A stretch of 64,000 nucleotides of DNA from Candidatus Bathyarchaeota archaeon (lineage in GTDB: Archaea; Thermoproteota; Bathyarchaeia; Bathyarchaeales; Bathycorpusculaceae). A program made the position numbers and the translations under genes. Below the pieces are notes generated by a model. That model ran no database searches. It had not been told where the DNA came from and worked only from the letters and a program-made list of their open reading frames with translations. Below, in pieces: positions 32,623 through 53,452 of this stretch. The stretch spans positions 1,979,013 to 2,043,012 of the forward strand of contig OY970176.1 in the NCBI GenBank assembly GCA_963707955.1, given 5' to 3'. Numbering within the stretch: the first letter of the stretch is position 1; the number at the start of each line of letters is the position of its first letter.

Positions 32623-33006
32623 CTACCCGCACAAACATTCAACCATCTTTGTGCAGACCAAGCAAGGTTCCGGAATCGGAGTTCCTTTCTGGCGTTTGTT
32701 CAGATACCCGAAGAAGTGCCCGCACCTGAAGTCGCTCACCGGTTGAGCACCGAGTTCGCTAGATCCTTTCCGTAGAACCTCAGGTCTTCTGTCTTCCTCT
32801 TTCAAGGCTTCGATGCCGTGGATTCTTGTCATGCAATGTGGACATGCCGGGTATGTCTGTACGCTAACGCCTGTTACCACTCTTGCAAGAATTGGTTTCT
32901 GCAAAGCTCTGCCGCACTTGTCACATGTAAGGTCAGCATGGCTTATCGTCTTTGGACAATCATGCTCCAGTTTCCCAGAGCTAATGTCTGTTTGCATCGT
33001 CATCAC
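32623..33006 (-). CDS. Cys-rich zinc-binding protein (two CxxC pairs plus C-terminal CGHFFGYL...CLVCTKMVEC motif)
   Basis: 127-aa ORF. Function unknown. Confidence 0.6.
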   Translation of the reverse strand: MMTMQTDISSGKLEHDCPKTISHADLTCDKCGRALQKPILARVVTGVSVQTYPACPHCMTRIHGIEALKEEDRRPEVLRKGSSELGAQPVSDFRCGHFFGYLNKRQKGTPIPEPCLVCTKMVECLCG

Positions 33007-33547: not shown

Positions 33548-34864
33548 TTAGTTTGCCGTTTTTAGTGGGCAGCCCGCTCCGCATATTTGGAGGCTTGGGC
33601 ATTCGTGGCATTTGTCTGGGGCGTATTCTCGTTTTCGGAGCTTCAGGCAAGTGGGGTTTTTCCAGATTTTTTGCCATTTGTCTTTGAGGATGTTTCCGAG
33701 TGGGACGAAGTAGCTTTGGCAGGGTATGACCGTTCCGTCTGGTTCGATGGCCATGTTTATGCGGCAGGCGCTGCAGCTTTTTATTCCCAGTTCCAGCTTC
33801 AGAGGGTCGGTTTCGCAGTATTCCGTCGGGGTGTACCACGTGAATTCCATTCCTAGATTTCTGGTCTCATTCTTTATTCGGGTCAGGATCGGCTCTAGTG
33901 CTGCTTCGTCTAACGCGAAGGTTTTGGCTATTTCTGGTGCTTTCCCAGAGTAGATCAGGCTGTTGCAGGCGAAGTGTTTGAGTCCGAGGTTGTGGACGAA
34001 TTCTATCGTGGCGTCTATGTCATTGACGTTTAGCTGGTTGAGTGTGGTGTTGCTGACCGTGTAGATTGGCGATGCGATGGCGTTTTTGAGTCCTTGGACG
34101 GTTTCGTCCCAGCTGCCGTTGACGCTTGTTATTTTGTCGTGGACTTTTGGGTCGTGTGATTCAAGGGTTATCTGGATGTGGTCTAGTCCTGCGTCGATGA
34201 GGGTTTTGAGGTACGCGCTGTCTTTGAGTTTTCGTCCGTTCGTGACGAGGCCGCAGACCAGCTCTTTTTCTTGCGTGTGCGCTATCAGCGTTGACAGGTC
34301 GTTTCTTAGGGTTGGTTCGCCGCCTGTGAAGACCACTTGGGGGATGCCTAGGGCTTGGAGTCTGTCGATCACGTTCACCCATTCTCGCGTGGTTAGCTCT
34401 TCTGTTTGTTTTGGGCCTCCGGCGTAGCAGTGTATGCACTTGTTGTTGCAGCGGTAGGTGAGGGCTATGTCCATGCGGTAGGGTGCGCTCAGCTCTTTTT
34501 GGAAAGGTTCTATCTTTTCTACGCCGAGGTAGGAGACGGGGCAAACGTCGGGTGTCTTGGCGAAGGAGTTGATGGTGAACAGTGTGTTTTTGATGTCTTT
34601 TCGGGCGGTTTCCGCGTCAACCTTGTAGCGTTTTAGAATTCTCTTTGCTGTCTGTTTTTCGTTTTCTCCTCGTATGAAAGAGTGTACGATTTCGGTGGCT
34701 GTCTGGTTGAGGAAGATGACTCTGGAGGCGTTTATGACTAGAACTCCTTCTCCGTTTTTCTCTAATCGTAGATGGAGTCTGAGACCGCGGTATTCGCCCT
34801 CTGCGACTTTGAGGTGGTGCAGCACCTCTCTGGGTTTTGCTCTTAACTTGTCAAGTACATTCAA
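33548..34864 (-). CDS. radical SAM/SPASM-domain enzyme with N-terminal PqqD/RRE-like domain
   Basis: CNNKCIHC (CxxxCxxC). C-terminal Cys clusters CSACRINMAIEPDGTVIPC and CHECPSLQICGAGC. The N-terminal ~90 aa (VLVINASRVIFLNQTATEIVHSF...) is PqqD-like. TTG start abuts the upstream TAG. Confidence 0.85.
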   Translation of the reverse strand: MNVLDKLRAKPREVLHHLKVAEGEYRGLRLHLRLEKNGEGVLVINASRVIFLNQTATEIVHSFIRGENEKQTAKRILKRYKVDAETARKDIKNTLFTINSFAKTPDVCPVSYLGVEKIEPFQKELSAPYRMDIALTYRCNNKCIHCYAGGPKQTEELTTREWVNVIDRLQALGIPQVVFTGGEPTLRNDLSTLIAHTQEKELVCGLVTNGRKLKDSAYLKTLIDAGLDHIQITLESHDPKVHDKITSVNGSWDETVQGLKNAIASPIYTVSNTTLNQLNVNDIDATIEFVHNLGLKHFACNSLIYSGKAPEIAKTFALDEAALEPILTRIKNETRNLGMEFTWYTPTEYCETDPLKLELGIKSCSACRINMAIEPDGTVIPCQSYFVPLGNILKDKWQKIWKNPTCLKLRKREYAPDKCHECPSLQICGAGCPLKTAN

Positions 34865-36517
34865 CTATCTTGCACCTCCGCCGGCGCAGGCACAAGCGCA
34901 ACCTACGCAGGCACAGGCGCATGCGCAGGCGTGGCATGCGCATACGCAGGATGGTTTTCCGCCTACTGGCTGCTGGCTTGGGGCAGACTTGAAAGGCACG
35001 AGTTTGTTGGCGAAGTCTTGAACGTTTTTGACGATGTTGTTTGAGGCTGTCTGGAGTCCTCGTACGATGTTGTTGGCGAAGTCTTGGCCCGGGATCGGTT
35101 TGGCTTGGACAGGTGGGGCCGTTGGTGTTGTGACTGGCGTTGGGGGGCTTTGTTGTCCCGTCGATGCGTGTAGGCCGCCCCAGTACCACCACCAAGCTGG
35201 GTTTGGATAAATGATTATTCCTGGTGGGAAGGCTGTTCTGAAGCGGTCTTCGAATTTGTCGTCTGCCAGTAGCCACTCGAGGTTTTTGTCGACGGCGTCG
35301 CCCTTGAGTTCTGGGGTTCCAGCCTGGGTTACCTGGGTCCAGGCTTTGTCTACTATGGACTTGTAGTAGTTGGTTGTGTCGTCTCTTGAGTAGCCGCGTA
35401 GCTTTTGGTCTACCGTATTGGTGAGTTCTACGTAGGTGCTGGCGAGCTTCTGCTCGTCGAGGGTTCCGTCTGGTCTTATGGCGTTCAGGTAATCTGTTTC
35501 GTAGTATCTTGGTAGTGGAGGCGACTGGCCTTGGGCTGGTTCGAGTTCGGTGAGTTTTATGAGGGGTTCAGTTTCGGTGACGGCGACCATGCGCTTTAGG
35601 AGAAGCCCGTAGAGAATCATGGTGAGGACGCGGACGGGCTTTTGATCCAAAACGAGGGCTGCCTCGACAGCCGTGAGTGTTCGGTTGGCGCCCAAGGCTT
35701 CGATCGACATGCGGGGTGTTGCGTAAGCCATTCTGGCAATTCTTGTAAAGTACAAGATTATCGCGGCGGCCACTATGAGAAAGACTAAGACCAATGAAGC
35801 CGTGGTTGTTATGTCTGGAAATGGCCCAGGGGTCGGGGTCGGCGCGGAGGAAACGTACGTGGCTGGGAAAGAAACGCCAGAAGTGAATTGTTGGCTTGGC
35901 GGCCAGTTTGTTCTCTCCCAGAAGACGGCGGTGTCGTTGTTCGTTTCTGTGAAGACATTGTCGAAGGGTGAGCTTGGGGGGTATTTCACTTCGGTTTTTT
36001 GTACGCCTGGTGGGAGGATGATTTCCACGCGTAGGTCTGTTATGAAGCCGCTTGCGGTGGAGAACGTTGTTTGGTAGAAGAGCAGGTCGACGTTTCCCGG
36101 GTTAGTGGTGTCCGCATGGATCATGTTTGGAACCAGAGCGTAAACAACGAATGTGTAGGGCTGGTTCAGCGCAACGGGTTGTTTGAGGTAAACGTCGATG
36201 CCGTAGAAGCTTCCCGATGACGCGCTTTGATATTGAAGTGTGGCCCCCGACAGGTCTTGCACATACTGAATTTGGAAGCCTCCTTGGGGCATTCCCACAG
36301 TGAATATGCCTTGAGGCGAGCCGGAGAGATACGTGAAGGTTATGTTGTACAGAATGTATATCGACCTGTCCGTGTTGATCTGGATCTGGGCCCACTCTTG
36401 GCTTACGGAGTAGGTTACACCCTGAGCCCTTGCAAGTTGAGCCTTTGTCAGCAATAATCCGAGGCACAAGATCAGTACGATGACGGACAAACCGGCGAGC
36501 TGCTGTTTCGTCACCAT
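34865..36517 (-). CDS. DUF2207-like membrane protein ending in a (Cys-X)n tail
   Basis: ATG 36517 gives MVTKQQLAGLSVIVLILCLGLLL. N-terminal domain, central TM TASLVLVFLIVAAAIILYF, and a long C-terminal region. The last 27 aa are CVCACHACACACACVGCACACAGGGAR. Confidence 0.75.
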   Translation of the reverse strand: MVTKQQLAGLSVIVLILCLGLLLTKAQLARAQGVTYSVSQEWAQIQINTDRSIYILYNITFTYLSGSPQGIFTVGMPQGGFQIQYVQDLSGATLQYQSASSGSFYGIDVYLKQPVALNQPYTFVVYALVPNMIHADTTNPGNVDLLFYQTTFSTASGFITDLRVEIILPPGVQKTEVKYPPSSPFDNVFTETNNDTAVFWERTNWPPSQQFTSGVSFPATYVSSAPTPTPGPFPDITTTASLVLVFLIVAAAIILYFTRIARMAYATPRMSIEALGANRTLTAVEAALVLDQKPVRVLTMILYGLLLKRMVAVTETEPLIKLTELEPAQGQSPPLPRYYETDYLNAIRPDGTLDEQKLASTYVELTNTVDQKLRGYSRDDTTNYYKSIVDKAWTQVTQAGTPELKGDAVDKNLEWLLADDKFEDRFRTAFPPGIIIYPNPAWWWYWGGLHASTGQQSPPTPVTTPTAPPVQAKPIPGQDFANNIVRGLQTASNNIVKNVQDFANKLVPFKSAPSQQPVGGKPSCVCACHACACACACVGCACACAGGGAR

Positions 36518-36903
36518 GTTGGTTCCTCTGTGAGTTCGAACTTGTTTCCGCAGTGGCCGCACGTGACGAAGGGTTTTCCGTCAAGAACTTCAGTCTTGGT
36601 CGCGTCGATCAGAGCTCCGCAGTTTGGGCAACGTATTTCTTTAGCCTCTAACGGTCCAGTGACCGTTACGGTTTGCTTAATCTCTATAGGTTTTTTCTCC
36701 AGGCCAAGGAAAATCAGGAATCCAGCGACCGCGAGGAAGACCAGGCCCACAAGAAAGTAAACAAGGCCAAGGTTAACTGAGACAACGAAGACGAGGCCCA
36801 AGAAGATCAGAACTGCCGACGCCAAGTAGATGGCAGCTCTAAGTATCCCCAGAGCCATAGCGCGTTGCGCGCGCCCGTACTCGCGTTTGGTTGCAGGGGA
36901 CAT
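36511..36903 (-). CDS. three-TM membrane protein with C-terminal zinc ribbon
   Basis: CPNCG...CGHCG. Its stop overlaps the ATG of the next gene. Confidence 0.7.
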   Translation of the reverse strand: MSPATKREYGRAQRAMALGILRAAIYLASAVLIFLGLVFVVSVNLGLVYFLVGLVFLAVAGFLIFLGLEKKPIEIKQTVTVTGPLEAKEIRCPNCGALIDATKTEVLDGKPFVTCGHCGNKFELTEEPTW

Positions 36904-38659: not shown

Positions 38660-39073
38660 ATGCCCCACTGTCTAAAGTGCGGTTCAGAAGTGGATGAGAA
38701 AATGGTCTTCTGCCCTAAATGTGGCGCACCGCTGAGGATGGAACAGCCTGCGGACCTGAGAGATGAGTGGAGGACAAAACGGAGGGAATGGAGGGAGCAG
38801 AGAAGAGAGCAAAGAAGACAGAGAAGACAGGGTGAGAAAAGCGAAAAGGAGGAAAAGTGGGAGAGAACAGAGAAGCATGAGTACATGTTCTTGGGGCCGC
38901 TCATCGGTGGACTGGTGCTCATAATATTCGGAGCTTTTCTCTACTTCTTAATAGTCGGAGGCTTCAGCGTACAGCTCCTAGGTGCGCTCTTCCTCGTCTT
39001 CGTCGGAGTGATAATCATAGTTGCCGCCTTGTACTCCATCGTTGTAGCAGAAAGAAGACACCGGAGACCTTAG
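38660..39073 (+). CDS. zinc-ribbon protein with charged linker and two C-terminal TM helices
   Basis: CLKCG...CPKCG, an R/E/Q-rich linker, then hydrophobic helices. Confidence 0.7.
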   Translation: MPHCLKCGSEVDEKMVFCPKCGAPLRMEQPADLRDEWRTKRREWREQRREQRRQRRQGEKSEKEEKWERTEKHEYMFLGPLIGGLVLIIFGAFLYFLIVGGFSVQLLGALFLVFVGVIIIVAALYSIVVAERRHRRP

Positions 39074-41526: not shown

Positions 41527-44391
41527 TTACGGGTAATGTTGGCCGAAGTGGCGTAGGGCGGTAACTACGTCTCCCATGTCTACTCTGCCGTTGTCGTCTA
41601 TGTCGCAGTTGGCATTGTACCTTGCCATTCCAGTCGTTGACCCGAATGCCGTGAGTATGAGCGTTACGTCTCCCTTGTCAACCTTAAAGTTTCCGTCAAC
41701 GTCGCCTGGAATGGTTACGATCGCATTGCCGCCCGTGCAATTGTTGTTCGCAGTGTTTGTTTCGTTTTGAACGGGCCATGCGTAAGCGCTTATGGTGTAG
41801 TTGCCATAAGCAAAGCCAGCAGTGTTCCAGGTGAAGGTGATGAGGGTGGACGTTGCGCTGAGCAAACTAGTGACGGTTATATTTCCAATTGGGGCTGTGT
41901 TGGCGTAGAGCGTTACGTTAAACGTTTCTGGCCAGTTTCCTAGGTTTGTAGCGGTCACTGTCAGGTTTTGGGAGTAGCCTTGGCCGATGATGGCTTTATA
42001 AGACGACACTTCGGTGACAGCAACGTCGTGATATGGAGAGGTTGTGAGGCTGATTGTGAAGTTGGCTGCAGCGCCTATCCGGTCGCTGTAATCATAGGCT
42101 TGATAGTTCCCAAAAGCGGTGACCGAGCCTGAAATCATGGCTTCAGCTGTTATGCTGACCGTTCCGGTCACGGACGAGTTTGCTATCAATGTCCAAGTTA
42201 CGGTTTGACTGTTTCCAGCTTCCATGAAACCTGTGCCTAAGGTCTTGGTTTGGTCTTCGCCAGGAGCAAGAATTAGCCCAGAAGGCAACGTTATCGATGC
42301 ATTGCAAGATGAAGCTGGATAAGTTGACACAGCGCCTGGTAGAGGTTGTGGATAAGTAATCGTCGACTGCACTTGGAACGGCGTTCCGGGCGAAACACCA
42401 GTCGGTGCGGAGAAAGTCACGTTCCAAGGAGAGACATAGAGAGCCCAGTAGTCATCATACGACCAAAGGTCCATGAATTTGCTGATGTTGAAAGCAGTAA
42501 CTGGGCCACCGTAATTGCTTCCCCATAACGCCTTGTTCCACGGGTCCTGCATAAAAATATTAGTCTGATTGTAGCCTATTGCAACGCGAAAATGGCCATT
42601 AACGTGGCTGCTGGTAAACCACATGCACAGTATAAGCGGTTTCCCCTGTTCAAGAAGACTTTCAAGAACCGTCAAGTTCATGCCATATGTTTCGAAGGCC
42701 GAACACCCTAAAGGCTGCGAAGTGTACCCTGTAATGTTGTAGGGAAGTTGATTACCCGTCGACGTGCTCGAATTGCTGAACTGCGCTGCCCTCCTCAAGT
42801 CATCGTCAGCAGTTCCGTCGTATGAAGGAAAGCCGATGGTTCTCGCGGCGGATGCTATTTCAGACTGCGATATGCTCCTGCCGTAGTAACTGAAGACCAT
42901 TTGAAGACAGGCTGGACCGCAATAGTAGTCTTTTTCTTGAAAGCTGAAAGGAACCGGAAGAATAGTCTCACCTGAAGCCACATAGTGAGCAGTGTAAACT
43001 CCGCCGGATGACACCGTTATCGTCGTAGTCCTTTCACCATCTTCCCAATCCAGAAACGCATTATTGTTCGCATCTGCGGTCGTCACGGTAAAAGTGTGAG
43101 TGCCCGTTAGCCCTGTCGCCGTGTAAGGAGTCCCATAGCCGGTTGGCAACCCGTCCATCGTAATCGGCACGTTAACATCCGCGTTCTCAGAGTAGTCGTG
43201 AGCACAAATGACGACACTGTACACGTAAGTTTGAGACGAACCGAAACAATACACGTTGTCATCCTGCGAGCCCACGTACAGCATCCCCTCAGCAACAGCT
43301 GGGGAAGAATACACTGCCCCACCCGTCGTGTAGCTCCACACCAAAGTCCCCGTCGACCCGTTCAAACAATACACGTTGCCGTCGTCCGAACCAACATAAA
43401 CCATCCCTCCTGCAACAGCAGGAGAGCAATCCATCTCGCCTCCTGTCATGTAGCTCCACACAGGCATGCCAGACGCACCGTTCAAACAGCAAACTCCATC
43501 CTCTAATCCAAGGTAAACGTCGCCGCCAGCGACAGCCGGAGAAGACAGAGCCAAGCCTGATGTGTATTTCCATACAAGCATCCCAGTTGAAGCGTTCAAA
43601 CAATAAACATTGTTATCATATGAACTCACGTAGACAGCGTCGTTGGCAACAGCTGGAGAAGAAAACACCCAGGCACCAGTCGTGTAGTTCCACACCGATG
43701 CGCCTGTTGTGGCGTTCAAGGCGTAGAAGTTGTTGTCATCTGAGCCTACGTAGACAACGCCACCGGCAACAGCTGGGGAAGAATACACTGCCCCACCCGT
43801 TATGTAGCTCCACACCAAAGTCCCCGTAGACGCGTTCAAGCAGTAAAAATCATTATCGCACGACCCCACGTAGACAGCGTCGTTGGCAACAGCAGGAGAA
43901 GACTCCACCTGCCCGCCAGTCGTGTAGTTCCACACCGATGCGCCTGTTGTGGCGTTCAAGGCGTAGACTTTGTCGTCGCCTGAGCCCACGTAGACAACGC
44001 CACCGGCAACAGCTGGGGAAGAATACACTGCCCCACCTGTTATGTAGCTCCACACCAAAGTCCCCGTCGACCCGTTCAAGCAATACACGTTGCCGTCGTC
44101 CGAACCAACATAAACCATCCCGCCTACAACAGCAGGAGAAGAAAGCACATAATTTCCCGTAGCGTAGCTCCATGCCGTATGGTTTGTTGTCGGTGCTGAC
44201 GTTGAATACCCACTGTGGTTCAGGTCATGGTGAAACATCGGCCACCAGTCTACGACGTCTGCAGTGGACTGTGCCACAGTGGTTCCAGAGCTACCATGGG
44301 ACTCGGTTGCTCCGATGAAAGTGCTCGTGGATAATACCGATATGAAAAACAGCATGACTAGGACGAAACACACAATCGCTTCTCTTTTCAT
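41527..44391 (-). CDS. secreted multidomain protein: PQQ-like beta-propeller repeats, C39-like papain-fold domain, CARDB-like domain, C-terminal dockerin
   Basis: Signal peptide. More than 8 repeats of ~40 aa (LVWSYxTGGAVYSSPAVAGGVVYVGSDDxNVYCLN). YYCGPACLQMVFSYYG block. CARDB-like HDVAVTEV...NLTVTATNLG. Dockerin GDVDGNFKVDKGDV...CDIDDNGRVDMGDV. Confidence 0.8.
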   Translation of the reverse strand: MKREAIVCFVLVMLFFISVLSTSTFIGATESHGSSGTTVAQSTADVVDWWPMFHHDLNHSGYSTSAPTTNHTAWSYATGNYVLSSPAVVGGMVYVGSDDGNVYCLNGSTGTLVWSYITGGAVYSSPAVAGGVVYVGSGDDKVYALNATTGASVWNYTTGGQVESSPAVANDAVYVGSCDNDFYCLNASTGTLVWSYITGGAVYSSPAVAGGVVYVGSDDNNFYALNATTGASVWNYTTGAWVFSSPAVANDAVYVSSYDNNVYCLNASTGMLVWKYTSGLALSSPAVAGGDVYLGLEDGVCCLNGASGMPVWSYMTGGEMDCSPAVAGGMVYVGSDDGNVYCLNGSTGTLVWSYTTGGAVYSSPAVAEGMLYVGSQDDNVYCFGSSQTYVYSVVICAHDYSENADVNVPITMDGLPTGYGTPYTATGLTGTHTFTVTTADANNNAFLDWEDGERTTTITVSSGGVYTAHYVASGETILPVPFSFQEKDYYCGPACLQMVFSYYGRSISQSEIASAARTIGFPSYDGTADDDLRRAAQFSNSSTSTGNQLPYNITGYTSQPLGCSAFETYGMNLTVLESLLEQGKPLILCMWFTSSHVNGHFRVAIGYNQTNIFMQDPWNKALWGSNYGGPVTAFNISKFMDLWSYDDYWALYVSPWNVTFSAPTGVSPGTPFQVQSTITYPQPLPGAVSTYPASSCNASITLPSGLILAPGEDQTKTLGTGFMEAGNSQTVTWTLIANSSVTGTVSITAEAMISGSVTAFGNYQAYDYSDRIGAAANFTISLTTSPYHDVAVTEVSSYKAIIGQGYSQNLTVTATNLGNWPETFNVTLYANTAPIGNITVTSLLSATSTLITFTWNTAGFAYGNYTISAYAWPVQNETNTANNNCTGGNAIVTIPGDVDGNFKVDKGDVTLILTAFGSTTGMARYNANCDIDDNGRVDMGDVVTALRHFGQHYP

Positions 44392-44653: not shown

Positions 44654-46207
44654 CTAGGGCTTGACAACTTCAGCGTTTTCGGTGCTGATTCCGCGCCAGT
44701 TTATCTTGTATCCGAGTGCTTCTAAAACGCCTGTTGCATCTTCCACTCCTTCAGTTTCGATCGTTTCAGCGGCTTCGGACAGGCTGATTCGTCCCTTCTG
44801 CTTGATTCGCTCATCGATTGTTCTCCCGATCTGTTCAAGCCGGTCTTTTCTGACCAGCTTGTCGGACATCACAACGTAGTCCTGCGGAGGTTTTTCAGTC
44901 AGCGCTGCCTTGACAGCTTCTGATGAAACCCCGATTCTCGCGGCCAACTCTTCAAAGTTCACGATGGGCTCAGTGAACACTATGGGCAGTTCTCTGACAA
45001 GACTGGTCTGCTTCGCTTTGACCTCTCGAAAAGCTTGTTCCAAGTAGCGAAGAACTGGCGATAACGGGATTCTGTCATGGTAGTACATGACGTTCAATCT
45101 TCCCTGCTTGCCCAGGTTTGACAGTTTTTCGCATGCCAGCTTCTGGTTGACGGCCACGAGCATGTCAACGTCGGTTTTCTTCAGTTTCTCGACCTTTCGT
45201 AGCAGGTAATCGACGGTCCAGAACCCAACGATCTCTAGGTACACTTTAGTTCCGTCTTTCTCAAGTGAGAAGTCGGGGATGATGACCTGTCTGCCCGCTA
45301 GAACAGGCTCAGGTTCCCTCTTCAAGATCCACCCGGACGTCAGGGCCTGAAAACGCGTGGCGAAATCCTCTTCAACGCTGCTGTCGAAGGACAGCTGTGC
45401 TGGTTCTGTTTTCCTCATCAGAGCGCGGTGTTTCCAGCTTTCGATCTTGAAGTCGCATATCTCGTTCGTGTATTTCCACAGGATCTTCGCCTCAACCGTC
45501 CATTCTGGGCTGGCAACTATGACGGGAACAAGTTTGGCTGTGGCCGTTCCGTACCTTCTGGTCAGCTTGAAGAGGCTTGCGGGACCGTCTACCTTCACCC
45601 ACAGGCGCTCAGCTTGATAGGCCTCGTAAATCAGGCCTAACCGCTTGATAGAACGGAAGATCTGCTGCCAGTTGCCCGACGCCGTGAACCTTACCTCGGT
45701 AGAGTCGAAAAGAAGCGTCTGCGTCAAGCTGACGTTGTACTCTTGAAGCAGCTCTTGTGCAGATAAAGGTTCAAACTCCTCCAACACCAGCTCGGTGTCC
45801 AAGTCTGCGTCGAAGAACTGCTCAACCATCGCCACGTCTACCTTCAATTCTGAGGCGACAGCCTCAACTATTCGCGCTCTGCGTTCCTGCGTGGTGGGCA
45901 ACCCGAGTCTTCCGACTGCCTGAAAGATCCTCCTTCTCAGGTCCACAGCATTGATCTTGTCGTCACATCTGAAGCGGCTTCTCCTGTCGAGAAGAAGGGA
46001 CAAACCCCGGACAAAACGATAATCGTAGCCTTCATCCTCAAACCCGTCTACAAACTCCTTCACGACGCGCTTCTTCTCACCGACGTGGCGCTTGTAGGCT
46101 TCAACGAGACCGTTAGCGACATCCAGCTTATCGGCGGACAGCGTGGCGTAACGCGGCCAGACCGTGCCCTTTCTCTTCCAAACCGCTAGAAGCTCGCTCG
46201 GAAGCAT
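44654..46207 (-). CDS. bax1: Bax1 (DUF790) endonuclease, XPB partner
   Basis: MLPSELL N-terminus. Nuclease block FDSSVEEDFATRF...IIPDFSL...YLEIVGFWTVDYLLRKV. Lies 4 nt downstream of xpb. Confidence 0.85.
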   Translation of the reverse strand: MLPSELLAVWKRKGTVWPRYATLSADKLDVANGLVEAYKRHVGEKKRVVKEFVDGFEDEGYDYRFVRGLSLLLDRRSRFRCDDKINAVDLRRRIFQAVGRLGLPTTQERRARIVEAVASELKVDVAMVEQFFDADLDTELVLEEFEPLSAQELLQEYNVSLTQTLLFDSTEVRFTASGNWQQIFRSIKRLGLIYEAYQAERLWVKVDGPASLFKLTRRYGTATAKLVPVIVASPEWTVEAKILWKYTNEICDFKIESWKHRALMRKTEPAQLSFDSSVEEDFATRFQALTSGWILKREPEPVLAGRQVIIPDFSLEKDGTKVYLEIVGFWTVDYLLRKVEKLKKTDVDMLVAVNQKLACEKLSNLGKQGRLNVMYYHDRIPLSPVLRYLEQAFREVKAKQTSLVRELPIVFTEPIVNFEELAARIGVSSEAVKAALTEKPPQDYVVMSDKLVRKDRLEQIGRTIDERIKQKGRISLSEAAETIETEGVEDATGVLEALGYKINWRGISTENAEVVKP

Positions 46208-46211
46208 GCTC

Positions 46212-47561
46212 TCACGCCTCCGAGCCTAGGTTCTGATGCCGTTTTCGGCTCATCCTCGCTTCCACGGTCTCCTTGGACACTATCTCAACAAGCTTGGCCT
46301 GCTTTCCCTCAACCTTTCTGAGCAGTCTTCCAAGCCTTTGAACGTACTCTCGTGTGCTTCCCGTTCCGCTGAGGATGAAGTCCACCGAAGCATCCGGAAC
46401 GTCCACGCCCTCGTCGAGAACCTGAGAGGTAACTATCACCCTGTAACTTCCGTTTCTGAAGTTTTCCATGATTTCGCGGCGCTCCTGCTTCGGTGTTTGA
46501 TAAGTCACGGCGGGTATCAGGAACCTGCGGCTTATCCTGTATACCAGGTCATTGTGCAGCGTGAAGATCAGTGTTCTTTCACTCTCGTGTGCTTCAAGCT
46601 GCTTGGCAAGCAGGTCCAGCTTTGCCTCGGAGTTCAACGCTACTCTCACCGCGCGGTTTCTGGCCAGAAGAGCCTCTCGCGCCTGCTTGTCCCTTCCAGT
46701 GGTCATTATGAACCTCTGAAAGTCCTCAGCGCTCCTCAGAACGATCCCCCTCTCCCTCAGATAACCGTTGAAAACGCTCATCTCGCCGTCGTAGACCTGC
46801 TGCTCCTCAGGAGTCAGCTCAACGTAAACCTTCTCGTAGGTGTACGGCGAAAGATGTTTTCCCGCCAACTCTTCGACGCCTACAGTATAGACGAGGTCGC
46901 CGACAAGGGCTGGAAGAAGCGAGTGCCTTTGGTCGCTTCTCTCGTACGTAGCCGTCAGACCCATACGGTAAGGCGCAATGTACATCTCAGCGATCTGCAT
47001 GTAACCCGGCGAAGCCAGATGGTGAACCTCATCGAACACCATGAACATGAACCTGTTGCCCAGCACGTCTGCCTGCAGATAAGCTGAGTCGTACGTGGAC
47101 ACGGTCAGCATTCTCACCGTGGATTCGCCGCCGCCCACGGTTCCCGCCTCCACGCCGAAGCATTCTTGCACTCTTCTTTTCCACTGATCTATCAGGTCTA
47201 ATGTTGGAACAACGACCAGAGTCTGCGTCTTCAAAAGACTAATCGCCTTCAACGCGATAAACGTCTTTCCAGCAGCGGTCGGAAGCACCAGGATTCCCCG
47301 TTTGCCAGCCCGCCGCCATCTGACCAAAGCCTCGCTCTGGTAAGGACGCAGCTCAACCCCGCCATGCAGAGTCTCGACGGGAGGAAGGTTCGGAACGCTG
47401 TCCCGAAACTGAAGCATGCTCTCCTTCAAATAGGACAGCACGTCGCGGTAATGCGAGGCCTTGACCCTGTAACAGCCTACCCTAGGGTCCCACTTTCCGT
47501 AAGGAGTCCCAACGTCCCCCCGCAGCAGAAGAGTGCCCCTGTCAAACCAAAGATCGATCAT
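46212..47561 (-). CDS. xpb: XPB/Rad25-type SF2 DNA helicase
   Basis: N-terminal damage-recognition-like domain, VLPTAAGKTFIA (motif I), FDEVHH (motif II), helicase C-terminal motifs. Confidence 0.85.
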   Translation of the reverse strand: MIDLWFDRGTLLLRGDVGTPYGKWDPRVGCYRVKASHYRDVLSYLKESMLQFRDSVPNLPPVETLHGGVELRPYQSEALVRWRRAGKRGILVLPTAAGKTFIALKAISLLKTQTLVVVPTLDLIDQWKRRVQECFGVEAGTVGGGESTVRMLTVSTYDSAYLQADVLGNRFMFMVFDEVHHLASPGYMQIAEMYIAPYRMGLTATYERSDQRHSLLPALVGDLVYTVGVEELAGKHLSPYTYEKVYVELTPEEQQVYDGEMSVFNGYLRERGIVLRSAEDFQRFIMTTGRDKQAREALLARNRAVRVALNSEAKLDLLAKQLEAHESERTLIFTLHNDLVYRISRRFLIPAVTYQTPKQERREIMENFRNGSYRVIVTSQVLDEGVDVPDASVDFILSGTGSTREYVQRLGRLLRKVEGKQAKLVEIVSKETVEARMSRKRHQNLGSEA

Positions 47562-47976: not shown

Positions 47977-48089
47977 AGAAAGCGGAGATATCTCCCGAAG
48001 ACCCTACTTTTGGTAGGATTTCGGATTGACATATCATATCGCCAAAAGAACAAAGTGAGGACAGACACTTAAAAAGAATATGTCGAAAG

Positions 48090-48112
48090 GGTACTGGTGC
48101 GTTAAGGGACAT
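48090..48112. repeat. left terminal inverted repeat GGTACTGGTGCGTTAAGGGACAT
   Basis: Reverse complement of 51161-51183 except at positions 2-3. Confidence 0.85.
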
Positions 48113-48173
48113 AACGATGGCTCATTAAACATAGATATATCTCAAAAGCATCGTATAGTAGTGGAGCATTGCA

Positions 48174-49331
48174 ATGAGTCTCCAAAGAATAAAAGATTCC
48201 CAAACAACATTAACTCTGATTGTTGCCACAGTTTTGTTTGCTCCAGCCGAGGTTGTTCTGTTTTATGCGGGAATACTTGTATCAACAAACTGGTCGACTA
48301 TGAATGGTCAAACAACTCAGATATTTGTGCTAAGAGACTATGGAGTTTGGTATCTGGCAGGTTGGTCAATTTTGCCAATTCTCTATTGTATAATTGCATC
48401 TCTCTATTTCTCACCAAAAAGAATTGTTTCGCCCTTAAATACGCAGATTTTTGCTTGGTTAATACTGTCTGTAGTCGAGTTTCTACACGAATACGACACG
48501 CTTTATTCGTATTACAATTACTACACTCACACACCTCCACCAGTTGCCCAAATAAACACAATGATTTCAACATGGGCTTCCAATTCGTTTGCTTTATTCT
48601 TCATCTTTGTTTTTGCTGGTCTCGGTCAACTGCTTATGGTTCGATTGATGGTGGGTCCTAATTTGATTGGTGTATGGCGAAAAACGTACGCTGTTAATGC
48701 AAAATGCGAGGTTCTTGATAGCGTTCTTTGTGAATTAGAAGATTACAGAAGACACGAAGAGGATGACGGTCTTATCGTTTATAAAATGCCTACAGGATTT
48801 GTTGATAAGGTTCTTATGGTTCTTGGTCCTGATCCGAGAAACAAGGATCATTCCCTTCTTGCAACTGTAGCTTACCATTCTGGAGTTTACTCCTATGAAC
48901 AAAGCGATGAATCAGCAGTTAAGAGAAATAGAACAATCTTTGAAATAGAGGGTAGATTACGGCATGCAGATTCTCCCGCCACTATAGAAGAGTTGAAAGA
49001 AGAATTGTATGATCCTGCAACAGCAAGAGCGTATGATTTAGCAATTAAGCCAACTCGGACACCGTTCAAAAGAATGGAAAAACTTGTTTCTCAAATTCCA
49101 CCCTTCTACAAATGGTTCATGGCTATAACATCCGTTCTAATTGTGCTGGTTCAGGTAGCTTATTTCACATCCTACTTCCATATTGATACGAATACATGGA
49201 TAAGCACAACTGTGCTTTTGCTCTTTGCCTTTTTTGCAGAAGCAGCGATACCTTTGAGGGATGAGATTCAAGCTCGATTGAAAGAACGATTAAGAAAAGA
49301 AGCGAGTGCTGATAAAGAGGGCAAGCCTTAA
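48174..49331 (+). CDS. transposon cargo: membrane protein (4 N-terminal and 2 C-terminal TM helices around a soluble domain), unknown function
   Basis: 385-aa ORF inside the element. Confidence 0.65.
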   Translation: MSLQRIKDSQTTLTLIVATVLFAPAEVVLFYAGILVSTNWSTMNGQTTQIFVLRDYGVWYLAGWSILPILYCIIASLYFSPKRIVSPLNTQIFAWLILSVVEFLHEYDTLYSYYNYYTHTPPPVAQINTMISTWASNSFALFFIFVFAGLGQLLMVRLMVGPNLIGVWRKTYAVNAKCEVLDSVLCELEDYRRHEEDDGLIVYKMPTGFVDKVLMVLGPDPRNKDHSLLATVAYHSGVYSYEQSDESAVKRNRTIFEIEGRLRHADSPATIEELKEELYDPATARAYDLAIKPTRTPFKRMEKLVSQIPPFYKWFMAITSVLIVLVQVAYFTSYFHIDTNTWISTTVLLLFAFFAEAAIPLRDEIQARLKERLRKEASADKEGKP

Positions 49332-49354
49332 ATACTAAATATGGCTTATAGGAT

Positions 49355-50260
49355 ATGTATAGGAGCGTAATAGGAATGAAATGCAAATACTGCGACTCCG
49401 AGAAAGTCGTGAAGGCTGGTATGAAGGGCAATAAGCAGAGATACCTCTGCAACGATTGTGGTCACAAGTTTGTTGAAGGTTCAGATTTTCCGAGAATGAG
49501 AACCGAGGCACGCATCATATCTTCTAGCATTGACTTTTATTTTGAAGGATTAAGCACTAGAAAGATTCAGACTCAGATTGAGAAACTCTATGGCGTTCAT
49601 GTTGACCATTCAACAGTGTTAAGGTGGATCTTGAAATACTCTAACCTAGTCTCTCAGTATGTCGAAACACTAACGCCTCAGTTGCTAGGTATCTATCACG
49701 TTGACGAAACAGTGATTAAGTGTAAGGGTGTTCAAAAGTGGTTCTGGGAAATTATTGACGACCAGACTAAATTCCTAGTTGCTGGTCACTTGTCAGGTTC
49801 AAGAACAGCCGAAGATGCAATCACTCTTTTTGAGAAAAGCATCAGAGTAGCTAAGAAGAAACCAACTTCAATTTACTGTGATGGGTTGCCTTCTTACGTG
49901 GATGGTTACAACAAGGTTTTCAGAACCATGCGAAAGGACACAAGACCAGAGTTGATAAGGAAAGTTGGCATCAGAGCAGTTCATAATCAGAACGTAGTCG
50001 AAAGATTACACAGTACTTTGAAGGATAGGATAAAACCAACCAGAGGCTTGAAAGGAGAAAACACTGTTAGAACTTTGCTCGAAGGATGGGTTGTCCACTA
50101 CAACTATGTGCGAAAGCATCAGACTTTGAAGATGACTCCTGCACAAGCTTCTGGTCTAAACGTGAAGAATGACTGGTACACTTTGGTTAAGGATGCAACG
50201 AAGAATGAGACGAAGAAAGAGGAAAAGCAAGTTCCGCAAATTGAGGTGACTGTAAAATGA
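49355..50260 (+). CDS. DDE transposase with N-terminal zinc finger (IS6-like; IS1-like not excluded)
   Basis: CKYCDS...QRYLCNDCGHKF zinc finger. DDE candidates: HVDET, IYCDGLPSY, NVVERLHSTLKDR (E plus K at +7). Confidence 0.85.
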   Translation: MYRSVIGMKCKYCDSEKVVKAGMKGNKQRYLCNDCGHKFVEGSDFPRMRTEARIISSSIDFYFEGLSTRKIQTQIEKLYGVHVDHSTVLRWILKYSNLVSQYVETLTPQLLGIYHVDETVIKCKGVQKWFWEIIDDQTKFLVAGHLSGSRTAEDAITLFEKSIRVAKKKPTSIYCDGLPSYVDGYNKVFRTMRKDTRPELIRKVGIRAVHNQNVVERLHSTLKDRIKPTRGLKGENTVRTLLEGWVVHYNYVRKHQTLKMTPAQASGLNVKNDWYTLVKDATKNETKKEEKQVPQIEVTVK

Positions 50261-50412
50261 AGAAGATTCTTGTTAGCCTTCCAGAAGGTATATTCAAGAT
50301 TGTCAAAGAATTGAAAGGACAGCTTGGAGACAGCGATTCTGAGGTTGTTCGCACTATGGTGATAAGTTTCCTCAGTGAGAAAGGATACTTGGCTAAGAGG
50401 GAGAATGAATGA
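50257..50412 (+). CDS. ribbon-helix-helix (CopG/Arc-like) protein, 51 aa
   Basis: Below the ORF-track cutoff. ATGA overlap with the transposase stop. MKKILVSLPEGIFKIVKELKGQLGDSDSEVVRTMVISFL. Confidence 0.6.
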   Translation: MKKILVSLPEGIFKIVKELKGQLGDSDSEVVRTMVISFLSEKGYLAKRENE

Positions 50413-50603
50413 GTAAACGCAAGAAAGACCGCATTAAAGAACTGGCTTTGGAACTTGATATAGTTGATCACATGATTGCTGCGTTGGTGGATGTTTTAGA
50501 AAAGAAGGGTATTTTGACCTCTGCAGAATGGGAAAAAGAGGTAAAGTTGAAGGTTGAAAAAGCAGCAAAGACAACGCAAAGTTTCAGGGAGATAGAATCT
50601 TAG
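50409..50603 (+). CDS. small helical protein (64 aa), unknown function
   Basis: ATGA overlap with the RHH gene stop. Confidence 0.5.
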   Translation: MSKRKKDRIKELALELDIVDHMIAALVDVLEKKGILTSAEWEKEVKLKVEKAAKTTQSFREIES

Positions 50604-50604
50604 A

Positions 50605-51111
50605 TTGCAAACCAAAAGCCACGACAGTTTGCATGAAACAATAGTAGCGAAAACTTTGCCTAGATTTGTTGAAAGGCTAAAGAAAGAAAGGCTTGTCTCT
50701 GATTACAATAGAGACAGTTTCCATGTTGAAATAAAGCATTTCAATGAAACTCATATGTTCAACATAAAACCCGATTTGGTTTTAGTTTTACCTGACAAAG
50801 CGAAGTTTCTAATCGAGGTAGTCAACCCCAGAGACCCGAAAAGATTACTAGGCGAGATTGTCTATCTTCAAATTCTTGGTTCTCGAAGGCTCATTGATAA
50901 TGGAATAATCTTCCTACTCCCACTAGGGTCTGAACACCCAACAGCACCCATGAAAGGTTTGAGACTTTCATTCACATCACTCGCTACTGGTCTGGAGCAA
51001 ATCGTTTCTACAAAGATTCCGTGTGATATAGCCTCATGGTCAACGACTGAGGAAAACAACTACGTCAATTTGAGAGGCTCTATTATATATCGTCCTAAGT
51101 TGCACTTATAG
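50605..51111 (+). CDS. hypothetical protein, weak PD-(D/E)xK-nuclease-like pattern
   Basis: HETIV...KPDLVLVLPDKAKFLIEVVNPRD. TTG start 1 nt after the previous stop. Confidence 0.5.
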   Translation: MQTKSHDSLHETIVAKTLPRFVERLKKERLVSDYNRDSFHVEIKHFNETHMFNIKPDLVLVLPDKAKFLIEVVNPRDPKRLLGEIVYLQILGSRRLIDNGIIFLLPLGSEHPTAPMKGLRLSFTSLATGLEQIVSTKIPCDIASWSTTEENNYVNLRGSIIYRPKLHL

Positions 51112-51160
51112 GAGAAGTTTGCATGAGCGAACAAAAAACGAATCCACCTAATATTCTCCC

Positions 51161-51183
51161 ATGTCCCTTAACGCACCAGTTTC
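51161..51183. repeat. right terminal inverted repeat ATGTCCCTTAACGCACCAGTTTC
   Basis: Pairs with 48090-48112. It creates the artefactual twin MSLNAPV ORFs in the track. Confidence 0.85.
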
Positions 51184-51357
51184 TGTCGAAAGCGTAGAAC
51201 ATGGAAACGGTAAAATCAACTGGTCAAACTGGCTTAAAAAACATATTACTAGACTGTCCAAGAGGAGAATACACTTTATCCAAACTACATCTTGGAACGG
51301 TTTGCAAGTTGAAGTCGAGTTAATAAACGGGCTCCTCAGAATAGTCAATAGACACTC

Positions 51358-52185
51358 ATGACCAATCTGATTTCAGTTTCTAGTGCACCTATCGCTGGGT
51401 TTGGGGACAAGGAATACTACGACCTTCTGGGCACGATTGAAGTGATGAAAAAAGTCTCTGAAGAGGTTGTGGTTGATGGTTTTGAGTTGCAACTTGAACC
51501 AGAATGGGACTGCGAAAATGCACCATTAACCGATGCTGACTGGGCTGATTGGACTAAGACTCCCAAATTTACTTTTGAAGAAGTTGTGGAACTAATCAAA
51601 AGTGAGGGTCTACCAATCCTTTCTGTTCATGCGAGCAGGGATGTCGGAAGTTATCTCTGCTCTGAGAAGGAAAGAGATTGGGAGAAGGGAAAGCGTGTCA
51701 TTTATGGTGCATTGTCAGTTGCTGAAGGATTGGGAGCGGAGGTTTGTGTATTTCATCTTTGGGACACTTGGAAAAGCAGTTTCGATTTGCGAAATGTCGA
51801 GAACATTTTTCTGAAGACAGCGGAACAGTTTCCAAAGGTTAAAGCTTCGGTTGAAAATATCCCAACACATCTAGAAGGTTATTCTCCGTTCATGTTGGTT
51901 GGGTCTGCCAATTATGTGACTTTAGACTTGAGATGGGCAACTATGTATAAGGAGCTTGACGCTTTCGAGTCGATAATTAACGGTATTGTGAATGTTCATC
52001 TGCGAGGGAGTCTGAAGGAGAGTAAATGGGTTCTAGAGCGTTCAGACTTTGATTTCTATGAAGCCTTGAACAAAATAAGAAAGGAATGGAAATATTCAGG
52101 ATTGCTCACAGTCGAGCCTGAAGGTAGAATAGACGGGTCATTGTTTGAAAGCTTCCTAGAAGCGATGCACACCTTGAAGACGTAG
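51358..52185 (+). CDS. xylose isomerase-like TIM-barrel protein (sugar phosphate isomerase/epimerase family)
   Basis: Pattern LSVHA...VCVFHLW...ASVENIP...VHLRG...TVEPEG, typical of the AP_endonuc_2 fold. Confidence 0.65.
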   Translation: MTNLISVSSAPIAGFGDKEYYDLLGTIEVMKKVSEEVVVDGFELQLEPEWDCENAPLTDADWADWTKTPKFTFEEVVELIKSEGLPILSVHASRDVGSYLCSEKERDWEKGKRVIYGALSVAEGLGAEVCVFHLWDTWKSSFDLRNVENIFLKTAEQFPKVKASVENIPTHLEGYSPFMLVGSANYVTLDLRWATMYKELDAFESIINGIVNVHLRGSLKESKWVLERSDFDFYEALNKIRKEWKYSGLLTVEPEGRIDGSLFESFLEAMHTLKT

Positions 52186-52200
52186 ATTCCTATTTGTTCA

Positions 52201-52230
52201 GCTATAACTTTTCCGCAAAACCAAAAACTG
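52201..52230. repeat. intergenic module copy A (GCTATAACTTTTCCGCAAAACCAAAAACTG)
   Basis: Starts 8 nt beyond the GNAT-1 stop (minus strand). Confidence 0.8.
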
Positions 52231-52237
52231 GCTTTCT

Positions 52238-52774
52238 TCAAGCTTTCTTAGTCAGTATCTTTGGTTCTTTCCATTCTTCTCTCAGGATACTGTAGATATA
52301 GGAATCTACCCATTCTCCTCTCATGAAAAAGCTTTTACGAAGTGTTCCTTCCTTCTTAAACCCAACTTTCTCTAAGAGTTTGTTAGAGGCTACATTTCTT
52401 GGGTCAGTTTGGGCTTGAATACGCATTGTGTCTTTTGAGAGAAACAAGTAATCCACCATTAACTGTGTAGCTTCGGTACAGTACCCTTTTCCCCTCTCAC
52501 TTGGCACTAAGCTATAGCCTATTTCTAGTTGCTTGCCCGCAACATGTAGGACATAAAAATGACCTATGAAACCAATTTTGCTTCCGTCCTTTTTCTCTAT
52601 GATGAATGACTTCTCTTCATGAGGGTTCTCAAACATTTTTTCTGCTTCTGTTCTGGACACCTGATGTAGAGGATTGTATTCACCAAAGACCTCAGGCTTG
52701 TTGAACCATTCTGCAATTAGTGGCAAATCCTCTTTCTCCATAATCCTCAAATTCACATTTTTACCTTCAAGCAA
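52238..52774 (-). CDS. GNAT family N-acetyltransferase (RimJ/RimL-like), paralogue 1
   Basis: 178 aa. LEIGYSLVPSERGKGYCTEA acetyl-CoA region. Confidence 0.85.
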   Translation of the reverse strand: MLEGKNVNLRIMEKEDLPLIAEWFNKPEVFGEYNPLHQVSRTEAEKMFENPHEEKSFIIEKKDGSKIGFIGHFYVLHVAGKQLEIGYSLVPSERGKGYCTEATQLMVDYLFLSKDTMRIQAQTDPRNVASNKLLEKVGFKKEGTLRKSFFMRGEWVDSYIYSILREEWKEPKILTKKA

Positions 52775-52809
52775 GTTAACTCACCAACCCAACATTTCAA
52801 GTCGATTCG

Positions 52810-52839
52810 GCTATAACTTTTCCGCAAAACCAAAAACTG
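52810..52839. repeat. intergenic module copy B
   Basis: Identical 30-mer between the two GNAT genes. Confidence 0.8.
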
Positions 52840-52846
52840 ATTATCT

Positions 52847-53383
52847 TCAAGCGGTTTTTGTCAATATCTTCGGTCCTTCCCATTCTTCTCTGAGAATGCT
52901 GAAGAGGAACATATCTGTCCATTCTCCTCTGCAGAAGTAGCACTTTCGCATTGTTCCTTCTCTCTTAAACCCAGCCTTTTCCAGAATCTTCTGGGAAATC
53001 ACATTCTTGGTGTGAGTCGTTGCTACTATTCGAGGAATGTCCTTTGAAAGGAAAAGATAGTCCACCATTAGCTGTGCAGCTTCAGTGGAATAGCCTTTTC
53101 CTCTCTCACTTGGAACGAGACCATAGGCAAGTTCTACCATACTCATATAAGTATTAAGAAAGTTGAAATGCATAATCCAACCAATTTTGCTTCCGTCTTT
53201 CTTCTCAATGATAAAATGCTTCGTTTCGAAAACGGTACTCTCCAAGAACTTCTCCATCCCTGCCCTAGTACCCTGTGTTGGAGAGAAATATTCAGCAAAG
53301 TCTGGGTTATTCCACCAGTCCACAAGAAACGGCACATCCTCTTTCTCTGCAACCCTCAAATTCACATTCTTGCCTTCAAGCAA
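52847..53383 (-). CDS. GNAT family N-acetyltransferase, paralogue 2
   Basis: 178 aa, collinear with paralogue 1 (MLEGKNVNLR...ILTKxA). Confidence 0.85.
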   Translation of the reverse strand: MLEGKNVNLRVAEKEDVPFLVDWWNNPDFAEYFSPTQGTRAGMEKFLESTVFETKHFIIEKKDGSKIGWIMHFNFLNTYMSMVELAYGLVPSERGKGYSTEAAQLMVDYLFLSKDIPRIVATTHTKNVISQKILEKAGFKREGTMRKCYFCRGEWTDMFLFSILREEWEGPKILTKTA

Positions 53384-53418
53384 ACCTGACCACCAATCTA
53401 GGTGTTTAAGTCGGTTCA

Positions 53419-53440: not shown

Positions 53441-53452
53441 GGTCCCAACATG

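Follow-up and report, generated by a model that had tools for sequence, protein, structure and literature searches.

In a 64,000-nucleotide stretch of the genome of a Candidatus Bathyarchaeota archaeon (assembly GCA_963707955.1, contig OY970176.1, positions 1,979,013 to 2,043,012; the window throughout this text), a gene on the minus strand encodes a 550-aa membrane protein that ends in a dense array of cysteines separated mostly by alanine, here called the Cys-Ala tail or module. We describe the conserved module and its spacing grammar, the three-gene cassette that encodes it together with a small zinc-ribbon membrane protein and a radical S-adenosylmethionine (rSAM) enzyme, and the domain make-up of this enzyme, which combines an rSAM core with a SPASM region and a recognition element (RRE) of the kind used on RiPPs (ribosomally made peptides that carry post-translational modifications). 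The tail is in our judgement probably a substrate of the adjacent rSAM enzyme. On balance we also favour the fuller reading, in which this RRE-rSAM-SPASM maturase modifies the tail in a RiPP-like manner and the modification is retained on the full-length membrane protein. As for its nature, multiple S-C thioether bridges are a tentative proposal made by analogy with characterised relatives.

A conserved Cys-Ala module

The open reading frame (ORF) of the tail gene (34865..36562, minus strand) has a translation ending in ...KPSCVCACHACACACACVGCACACAGGGAR*, with the first tail Cys codon at 34948..34946 and the TAG stop codon at 34867..34865. Its likely true start is an ATG at 36517, from which the homologues align and which gives the 550-aa product. 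The original prediction, made from the nucleotide sequence alone, had reported 10 Cys in 21 residues at 34868-34948; these coordinates were correct, but the implied plus-strand reading was not, as the gene sits on the minus strand. When the 64-kb window was scanned in all six frames, every other 21-residue stretch held six Cys or fewer. The Cys had been described as strictly occupying every second residue, which is true within three C-x-C blocks of three, four and three Cys but not across the whole tail, where two 2-residue spacers (HA and VG) break the alternation before the terminal GGGAR. At these two block junctions the spacing is CxxC, contrary to the statement that the pattern does not resemble CxxC motifs. 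The GC-rich quasi-repeat noted in the underlying DNA was present but weak, with Tandem Repeats Finder (TRF) reporting periods of 6, 12 and 27 at scores of 30-73. Overlapping ORFs in other frames (34851..35276 on the minus strand and 34674..35021 on the plus strand) were Arg/Pro-rich and are spurious.

To measure conservation of the tail, we used the best 120 (52-97% identical overall) of 673 homologues obtained by a word-indexed protein search, in which the named homologues were Candidatus Bathyarchaeia. The pattern C[VIAF]CAC..CAC[AH]CACV[SG]CACACA[GHS]GG[AGP][RH]$ was matched by 119 of them, and in the single exception Gly replaces the first Cys with the tail otherwise kept. The length of the tail was the same in all 120 and all 10 Cys were present in 119, at odds with the suggestion that the repeat is prone to slippage. 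In an alignment of 48 sequences of the tail protein, 18 invariant columns fell within the last 25 residues. The tail is the most conserved segment of the protein, so that the possibility, raised at the outset, of its being poorly conserved in orthologues can be set aside. At the DNA level, the window was compared with seven GTDB genome loci (L001-L007), which come from Bathyarchaeia metagenome-assembled genomes, one of them labelled Nanoarchaeia. Across these eight loci the third positions of the TGT/TGC, GCN and GGN codons vary, while the amino acids and the length are constant. Such free third positions combined with fixed residues and length confirm the annotated frame, by a check that had been named beforehand, and indicate purifying selection on the peptide rather than a slippage-prone repeat. 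The weak TRF repeats would suit an artefact, either a GC-rich repeat read in the wrong frame or a functionless low-complexity end made by slippage; given the residue invariance, the constant length and the conservation from Archaea to Bacteria, we rejected this explanation and assign it practically no likelihood.

Wider sampling revealed the grammar of the module. An exhaustive representative search yielded 528 clusters at 50% identity, of which the best 150 were inspected, and the tail was present in 123 of these. Of the 27 tail-less representatives, 25 had fewer than 490 aa and seem to be fragments, whereas P0151 and P0167 are long and carry an internal module of 4+4+3 Cys (CHCVCAC-VS-CACVCAC-VS-CACACA) followed by an extra C-terminal domain of ~90 aa, showing that the module need not be terminal. 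Endings among the tailed representatives included GGR (83), GGAG (12), GGVG (8), GGCT (7) and GGAR (6), and GGG after the last CACACA was near-invariant across the sampled subfamilies. We collected 57 distinct modules under a definition that itself admits only one- or two-residue Cys spacing. The one-residue spacing occurred 352 times and was filled by Ala in 312 cases, by Val in 28 and by His, Ile, Asp or Phe in a few, and the two-residue spacing occurred 92 times, as VS, AG, AS, HA, VG and others. The blocks contained 2-6 Cys each, usually 3-4, with GGG after the final block. Such a pattern would suit beta-strand-like blocks joined by tight turns at the 2-residue junctions, with the thiols on one face and the Ala methyl groups on the other, a geometry towards which AlphaFold2 (AF2) modelling was neutral.

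The tail protein has several further parts (Table 1). Its AF2 model (ma6b0069d44b6, built with 48 homologues) had a mean predicted local distance difference test score (pLDDT) of 76.7 and comprised an N-terminal signal or first transmembrane (TM1) helix at residues 4-29, a segment rich in Trp and a disordered linker rich in Pro preceding the helix pair at residues 477-506, and the Cys-Ala tail, which was modelled as disordered with a pLDDT of ~30. A fragment model of residues 262-550 (mf70052f9f047) had a predicted template modelling score of 0.75, and in it the helix pair packs on the helical domain at residues 283-427. No fold match to this domain was found in the PDB (best Foldseek E = 1), and as modelled it may be a new fold. 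The helix pair has the conserved form PG.[DA]FAN.IV in archaea and bacteria alike and may be the element that the RRE of the rSAM enzyme recognises. Because TM2 is followed by a basic stretch, the positive-inside rule predicts that the C-terminal half, including the tail, is cytoplasmic.

No family was found for the window tail protein in Pfam (E <= 0.01) or NCBIfam, and no NCBIfam model matched any of the four tail proteins tested. With the whole model, Foldseek retrieved ribophorin I/OST1 chains (E 2.7e-9 to 1e-7; best match 8b6l_O at 2.7e-9, also 6s7o_E and 8agb_E) and the N-domain of M1 aminopeptidase/LTA4H, matches that probably reflect a generic beta-sandwich. Like the tail protein, ribophorin I has a beta-sandwich on the luminal or extracellular side, one TM helix and a helical part in the cytosol, but the TM-scores were ~0.27 and the identities 10-14%, and ribophorin I has neither a Cys tail nor an rSAM partner.

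The cassette, its enzyme and its relatives

The first gene of the cassette encodes the small zinc-ribbon protein, whose matches to zinc-ribbon Pfam families were sub-threshold, and its stop codon overlaps the start of the tail gene. The order of small protein, tail protein and rSAM enzyme was found in all seven genome loci, in which the flanking genes were not conserved. Homologues of the small protein lay directly upstream of the tail gene in all seven, as well as in the bacterial loci L008 and L009, where they share the CxxCGA...CxxCG...EEP[KT]W ending (EEPKW in the bacterial proteins). The small-protein gene was found in 36 loci in total among the matches listed. The rSAM ORF starts right after the tail stop codon in the seven genome loci, in L006 as an in-frame overlap. 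Stop and start abut in-frame as TAG-TTG in the window (34864..34867, minus strand), and the stop is TAG, TAA or TGA in archaeal loci, an arrangement suggesting termination-reinitiation coupling. The bacterial loci have a spacer of 1 or 34 nt between the tail stop and the rSAM start. A fusion of the tail protein to the rSAM enzyme through pyrrolysine insertion or other stop read-through was rejected, because TAA or TGA is used elsewhere and the bacterial loci have spacers or a change of frame.

The window rSAM enzyme has the make-up of a RiPP-type maturase, namely a CX3CX2C motif, a SPASM region, a PqqD-like RRE domain and a linked Cys-containing putative substrate. It scored 94.1 bits with Pfam Radical_SAM (cutoff 29.5) and 43.7 bits with Pfam SPASM (cutoff 21.5). 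The auxiliary-cluster motifs C-x12-G-x4-C and CX2CX5CX3C are kept in all type A enzymes (types are described below), and the window enzyme, which ends in CPLKTAN, lacks the usual final eighth SPASM Cys. Its nearest solved structures by sequence were SkfB (E 1.9e-21) and PqqE (E 1.1e-17). No NCBIfam family reached its cutoff for the window enzyme, and the same was true of the bacterial and type B enzymes. The scores of the window enzyme were 141 for NirJ2 (cutoff 500), 131.6 for PqqE (381), 124.8 for GeoRSP (TIGR04303; 400), 94.8 for SkfB (300), 82.8 for StsB (625) and 69.2 for ACGX (TIGR04340; 400), and the cutoffs of pseudo-SAM Halo, AhbD and MftC were likewise not reached. Since these scores are below cutoff and non-discriminating, the chemistry of the enzyme is not assignable by homology. 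A PADLOC search for known anti-phage defence systems returned only a generic core similarity of the rSAM enzyme to viperins (72 bits) and no match for the tail protein or the small zinc-ribbon protein.

Table 1. Positions of the cassette genes and their parts in the window.
Feature	Coordinates	Strand	Description
Small membrane protein	36511..36903	-	130 aa; two predicted TM helices, then cytoplasmic C4 zinc ribbon (CPNC...CGHC); ends in EEPTW
Tail protein	34865..36517	-	550 aa plus stop; bitopic membrane protein
Ectodomain	35864..36415	-	Residues 35-218; beta-sandwich, pLDDT ~90 or more
TM2	35738..35812	-	Residues 236-260, followed by the basic stretch RIARMAYATPRM
Cytoplasmic helical domain	35237..35671	-	Residues 283-427; from the fragment model
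Conserved helix pair	35000..35089	-	Residues 477-506 (DFANNIVRGLQTASNNIVKNVQDFANKL); DFANNIV...NVQDFAN; upstream of the tail
Cys-Ala module	34883..34948	-	Residues 524-545; CVCAC-HA-CACACAC-VG-CACACA; 10 Cys in blocks of 3+4+3
GGGAR and TAG stop	34865..34882	-	GGG directly after the last CACACA
rSAM/SPASM enzyme	33548..34864	-	438 aa; TTG start directly after the tail stop, in the same frame
PqqD-like RRE domain	34583..34729	-	rSAM residues 46-94; Pfam PqqD 26.6 bits (cutoff 23.4)
CX3CX2C motif (CNNKCIHC)	34427..34450	-	rSAM residues 139-146
SPASM region	33569..33775	-	rSAM residues 364-432; C-x12-G-x4-C and CX2CX5CX3C; two predicted auxiliary Fe-S clusters

Just downstream of the rSAM gene and on the same strand, a 127-aa Cys-rich ORF (32623..33006, minus strand) contains several CxxC pairs and has no Pfam match. 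As a candidate fourth component it was rejected, having no counterpart in the seven related genome loci, and it is probably not part of the cassette. The other neighbours in the window are unrelated to the cassette and encode RNase P subunits, L15e, an ATPase and a beta-propeller/C39/dockerin protein.

More distant tail proteins (~30% identity) have a shorter and still more uniform end of the form ...GGGG-CACACAC-AG-CACACAGGGR, with 7 Cys. These shorter-tailed relatives are bacterial, belonging to Anaerolineae/Chloroflexota (Anaerolineales) and Zixibacteria, and loci of Anaerolineales and Zixibacteria contained the same three-gene cassette including a homologous zinc-ribbon protein. Independently of any family definition, metagenome contigs were scanned with a degenerate DNA pattern encoding CACACAGGG, which gave at least 120 stretches, and the surrounding ORFs were labelled by reference-based BLAST. 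An in-frame Cys-rich tail was found in 109 of the 120 stretches listed. Among these matches, a same-strand rSAM gene lay within 2.5 kb of 92 of the 109 tails, the remaining 17 were all on contigs too short on one side, and none of the tails with at least 2 kb on both sides was without an rSAM gene.

The cassettes were of types A, B and C. Archaeal type A has the order small protein, tail protein (10 Cys) and rSAM, and bacterial type A has small protein, tail protein (7 Cys) and rSAM, with a second rSAM paralogue and a class I methyltransferase as optional further genes. The type C order is small protein, rSAM, paralogue, tail protein (one or two copies) and methyltransferase, and type B consists of an rSAM gene followed by a tail gene. 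The second paralogue, present in many bacterial cassettes (L015, L016, L038, L044, L049 and others), has lost CX3CX2C and all SPASM Cys but retains a weak PqqD-like signal, and by these residues it looks like a pseudo-rSAM, perhaps a substrate-holding partner. For the rSAM enzyme of L008, too, a weak PqqD match is on record. A class I S-adenosylmethionine-dependent methyltransferase (Methyltransf_11/25, UbiE-like) is encoded at the 3' end of ~19 bacterial cassettes among the matches listed (9138..9800 in L009; also in L016, L017, L028, L031, L063, L064, L083 and others) and not in the archaeal window, and its recurrence may point to an additional methylation step. In L017, L080 and L086, a single rSAM gene was observed beside tandem tail-protein paralogues, all of which carry a module.

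Type B tail proteins are 330-400 aa long, lack the cytoplasmic helical domain and have an ectodomain homologous to that of type A (hhalign probability 97.3%, E 1.9e-11). Their tails read ...CACA-SS-CACACACAGGGRAGCS[AV]K[DN][FL]Y and are followed by 12-54 further polar residues, mostly 20-33. The type B rSAM enzymes keep CX3CX2C but have lost the CX2CX5 part of SPASM, leaving one auxiliary-cluster motif, and on these motifs they are classed as twitch-like with a single predicted auxiliary site. Type B was found in Gemmiger formicilis, a cultured commensal of the human gut (WP_204650527.1, annotated as 'hypothetical protein'), in which the rSAM gene is upstream. One type B cluster at 90% identity comprised 3,610 member sequences, and one type B contig came from a human gut metagenome. 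All members bearing a source name were annotated as 'hypothetical protein'.

Readings of the tail

The substrate relationship is favoured because the linkage of tail and enzyme is strict and resists rearrangement, the enzyme has a peptide-maturase architecture, a disordered tail is extremely conserved and the topology is compatible. The association survives in type B, where the rSAM gene is upstream and the cytoplasmic domain is gone, and in P0151 and P0167 with their internal module. Disorder of the modelled tail is as expected for an enzyme substrate, and the predicted topology would place the tail in the cytoplasm, where the rSAM enzyme can reach it. Of the roles offered in the original prediction, which had also alluded to the rSAM enzyme, that of a crosslink substrate is the best supported, by the abutting rSAM gene, which recurs in the seven genome loci, in the bacterial homologues and beside most of the listed tails (92 of 109), though the crosslinking chemistry itself is conjectural. 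A lipidation or persulfide carrier, also proposed there, draws no support from the gene neighbourhood.

Thioether chemistry is tentatively preferred because of precedent in related enzymes, because SkfB is the nearest solved relative and because an auxiliary site is shared across the branches, the one site kept in type B being their common denominator. In characterised thioether-forming rSAM-SPASM enzymes, an auxiliary cluster is bound by a substrate Cys (PMC10177961) and an N-terminal RRE is used (PMC8188230). In the proposed course of events, the tail protein would insert so that the beta-sandwich domain lies outside and the C-terminal half inside, the disordered tail would be offered to the cytoplasmic enzyme, and the PqqD-like RRE would dock on the substrate. 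The Cys thiolates might then engage an auxiliary Fe-S cluster, and 5'-deoxyadenosyl radical chemistry would modify the module, the most likely product being several intramolecular S-C (sactionine-type) thioether bridges from Cys to the small residues Ala, Gly or Val. Such bridges could lock the blocks of 3-4 Cys and the 2-residue turns into a rigid ladder still attached to the protein. The zinc-ribbon membrane protein may serve as a third subunit or assembly factor, and the cluster-less pseudo-rSAM and the class I methyltransferase of bacterial cassettes may add further steps. A bolder and rather doubtful extension is that (Cys-Ala)n-GGG and its rSAM enzyme represent an unrecognised, ancient class of protein-embedded modification common to Archaea and Bacteria. 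Its product, attached to the cytoplasmic tail of a transmembrane receptor-like protein, would be either a new poly-thioether ladder or a metal-sulfur or redox cofactor derived from the protein. If true, the system would amount to a novel type of cofactor or signalling element, tethered to the membrane, whose chemistry is unseen in known RiPPs.

Several points weigh against modification of the tail by the enzyme. The proposed chemistry is extrapolated from distant relatives, and sactisynthases are not singled out by the NCBIfam scores, in which NirJ2 (141), PqqE (132) and GeoRSP (125) exceed SkfB (95) and StsB (83). The near-invariance of Ala and GGG is stricter than at known sactipeptide acceptor sites and may instead stem from steric or metal-binding constraints. 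The helix pair packs against the cytoplasmic domain of the fragment model and so might be unavailable to the RRE as a free leader. Pfam PqqD was not found in type B rSAM enzymes, and the cassettes contain neither a protease nor an exporter, so that they are not a classical RiPP pathway. Co-occurrence would also fit a tail that, rather than being the enzyme's substrate, assists it, for instance by donating a cluster or electrons.

The main rival is an explanation in terms of metal, by which the tail is a membrane-tethered metallothionein-like or Fe-S scaffold site. If its blocks fold as beta-strands, all 7-10 thiols would line up on one face as a thiolate array for Fe-S, Cu(I), Zn or some other thiophilic metal, and the rSAM/SPASM enzyme, instead of modifying the tail covalently, would be its partner in exchanging clusters, transferring electrons or assembly. 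We consider this unlikely as the whole explanation. The 57 modules contain only C-x-C and C-x-x-C spacing (as set by their definition), with Ala in 312 of 352 single spacers and turn-like double spacers (VS, AG, AS, VG); the invariant small residues and GGG suit a tight steric requirement; and the beta-meander geometry, itself inferred from the Cys spacing, is compatible with a metal site. The hosts are mostly anaerobes (Bathyarchaeia, Anaerolineae, Zixibacteria and gut Firmicutes), in which free cytoplasmic thiolates would be stable, and a zinc-ribbon protein is the constant partner. Left unexplained, however, are the strict coupling of an RRE domain and a complete radical-SAM site to the tail and the presence of a pseudo-rSAM and a methyltransferase in bacterial cassettes, and known Fe-S scaffolds and metallothioneins need no rSAM enzyme. 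AF2 produced no folded hairpin (pLDDT ~30), although it cannot model metals. Metallothioneins likewise have dense Cys in C-x-C and C-x-x-C with small residues between them, but they are small soluble Cys-rich proteins of less than ~10 kDa whose Cys bind metal-thiolate clusters, whereas this module, 22 residues long, closes a 550-aa membrane protein and has a rigid period, a near-invariant sequence and an obligate rSAM linkage. The two readings are compatible, since a modified tail could still bind metal.

Radical chemistry of another kind, such as epimerisation of alternate residues to give a D/L chain and a beta-helix or oxidation of Cys at C-beta to formylglycine-type residues, is quite improbable. 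Peptide epimerisation and Cys oxidation by rSAM/SPASM enzymes are established (reviewed in PMC8326336 and PMC5682303; EpeE in PMC13012085), a product of alternating stereochemistry would need the strict two-residue periodicity seen in the module, and the matches of the window enzyme to characterised families are all too distant to settle its chemistry. Even so, this idea is purely speculative and leaves the 2-residue block junctions and GGG unexplained; the 25 best NCBIfam matches included no epimerase or anaerobic sulfatase-maturating enzyme model, and the sulfatase context C-x-[PA]-x-R is missing from the tail sequence. That the tail is a signal for C-terminal sorting, anchoring or lipidation, akin to archaeosortase/PGF-CTERM or sortase signals or to the palmitoylated cysteine strings of eukaryotes, is very improbable. 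It has a general likeness to such signals in that the module usually stands at or near the C-terminus with a basic residue last. Against this, archaeosortase PGF-CTERM and sortase LPXTG signals consist of a motif, a hydrophobic helix and a basic tail, while here no hydrophobic helix follows the motif, the protein ending in ...CACACAGGGAR* on the predicted cytoplasmic side. The type B module is followed by 12-54 polar residues and that of P0151 and P0167 by a domain of ~90 aa, and the recurrent partners are the rSAM enzyme, the zinc-ribbon protein, the pseudo-rSAM and the methyltransferase rather than a sortase, archaeosortase or acyltransferase.

Much new chemistry, including sactipeptides, ranthipeptides and mycofactocin, has come from pairs of an rSAM/SPASM enzyme and a Cys-rich target. 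The systems for sactipeptide and ranthipeptide maturation (SkfB, AlbA, RumMC2, CteB (SCIFF) and PapB) have the same architecture of RRE, CX3CX2C and SPASM or twitch domain, and they also encode a Cys-rich target beside the enzyme. Their precursors are 40-60 aa long, whereas the putative target here is the C-terminus of a 550-aa membrane protein, with C-x-C and Ala in place of obvious distinct acceptor residues, with a zinc-ribbon membrane protein in the cassette and without a leader protease or exporter. The pairs defined in silico by Haft-type analysis (ACGX TIGR04340, GeoRSP TIGR04303, CXXX-repeat and SCIFF) follow the same logic of a dedicated rSAM/SPASM enzyme and a low-complexity target with periodic Cys, for which the modification is unknown or a thioether, but their Cys recur at every fourth or fifth residue instead of every second, and the carrier here is a large membrane protein. 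That carrier resembles DUF2207 proteins (PF09972/PF20990) in its plan of signal peptide, extracellular beta-rich domain, TM helix, cytoplasmic part and Gly-rich low-complexity C-terminus, and in type B, Gly runs of the GGGF type stand before the tail. Relatives gave faint matches to the DUF2207 N-domain (E 0.003; 18.3 bits against 24.4) and to DUF2207_C (E 0.046; 13.9 against 33), and the DUF2207 gathering score was reached neither by them nor by the window tail protein (no Pfam family at E <= 0.01). Neither Cys-Ala modules nor rSAM partners are known for DUF2207 proteins.

Full-text literature searches found no description of the motif or the cassette. The system differs from known pairs in its DUF2207-like carrier, its Cys period, its set of partners, the lack of a protease or exporter and its presence in both prokaryotic domains. 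As an enzyme-target pair it spans the archaeal-bacterial divide, from Bathyarchaeia to Chloroflexota, Zixibacteria and Firmicutes, and a family definition would improve the annotation of several thousand genes. If the tail is modified, it would provide a directly testable case of RiPP-like chemistry on a membrane protein.

Other features of the window

Apart from the cassette, the window contained several other loci. A 954-aa secreted protein (41527..44391, minus strand) combines PQQ-like beta-propeller repeats with peptidase C39-like, CARDB and dockerin type I domains, which is unusual for an archaeon. An archaeal XPB-type helicase (46212..47561) adjoins a DUF790 protein (44654..46207) on the minus strand (44654..47561 in all), corresponding to the known pairing of XPB with the Bax1 nuclease. 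A 137-aa protein (38660..39073, plus strand) combines a zinc ribbon at its N-terminus with TM helices and a charged RE-rich linker, and it gave a faint DUF2207_C match below cutoff (E 1.7e-4). Finally, a low-GC island at ~48000..56000 (0.40-0.42 compared with ~0.49 elsewhere) holds an IS240-type DDE transposase (49355..50260) together with a tandem pair of GNAT acetyltransferase paralogues (52238..53383) and was probably acquired horizontally.

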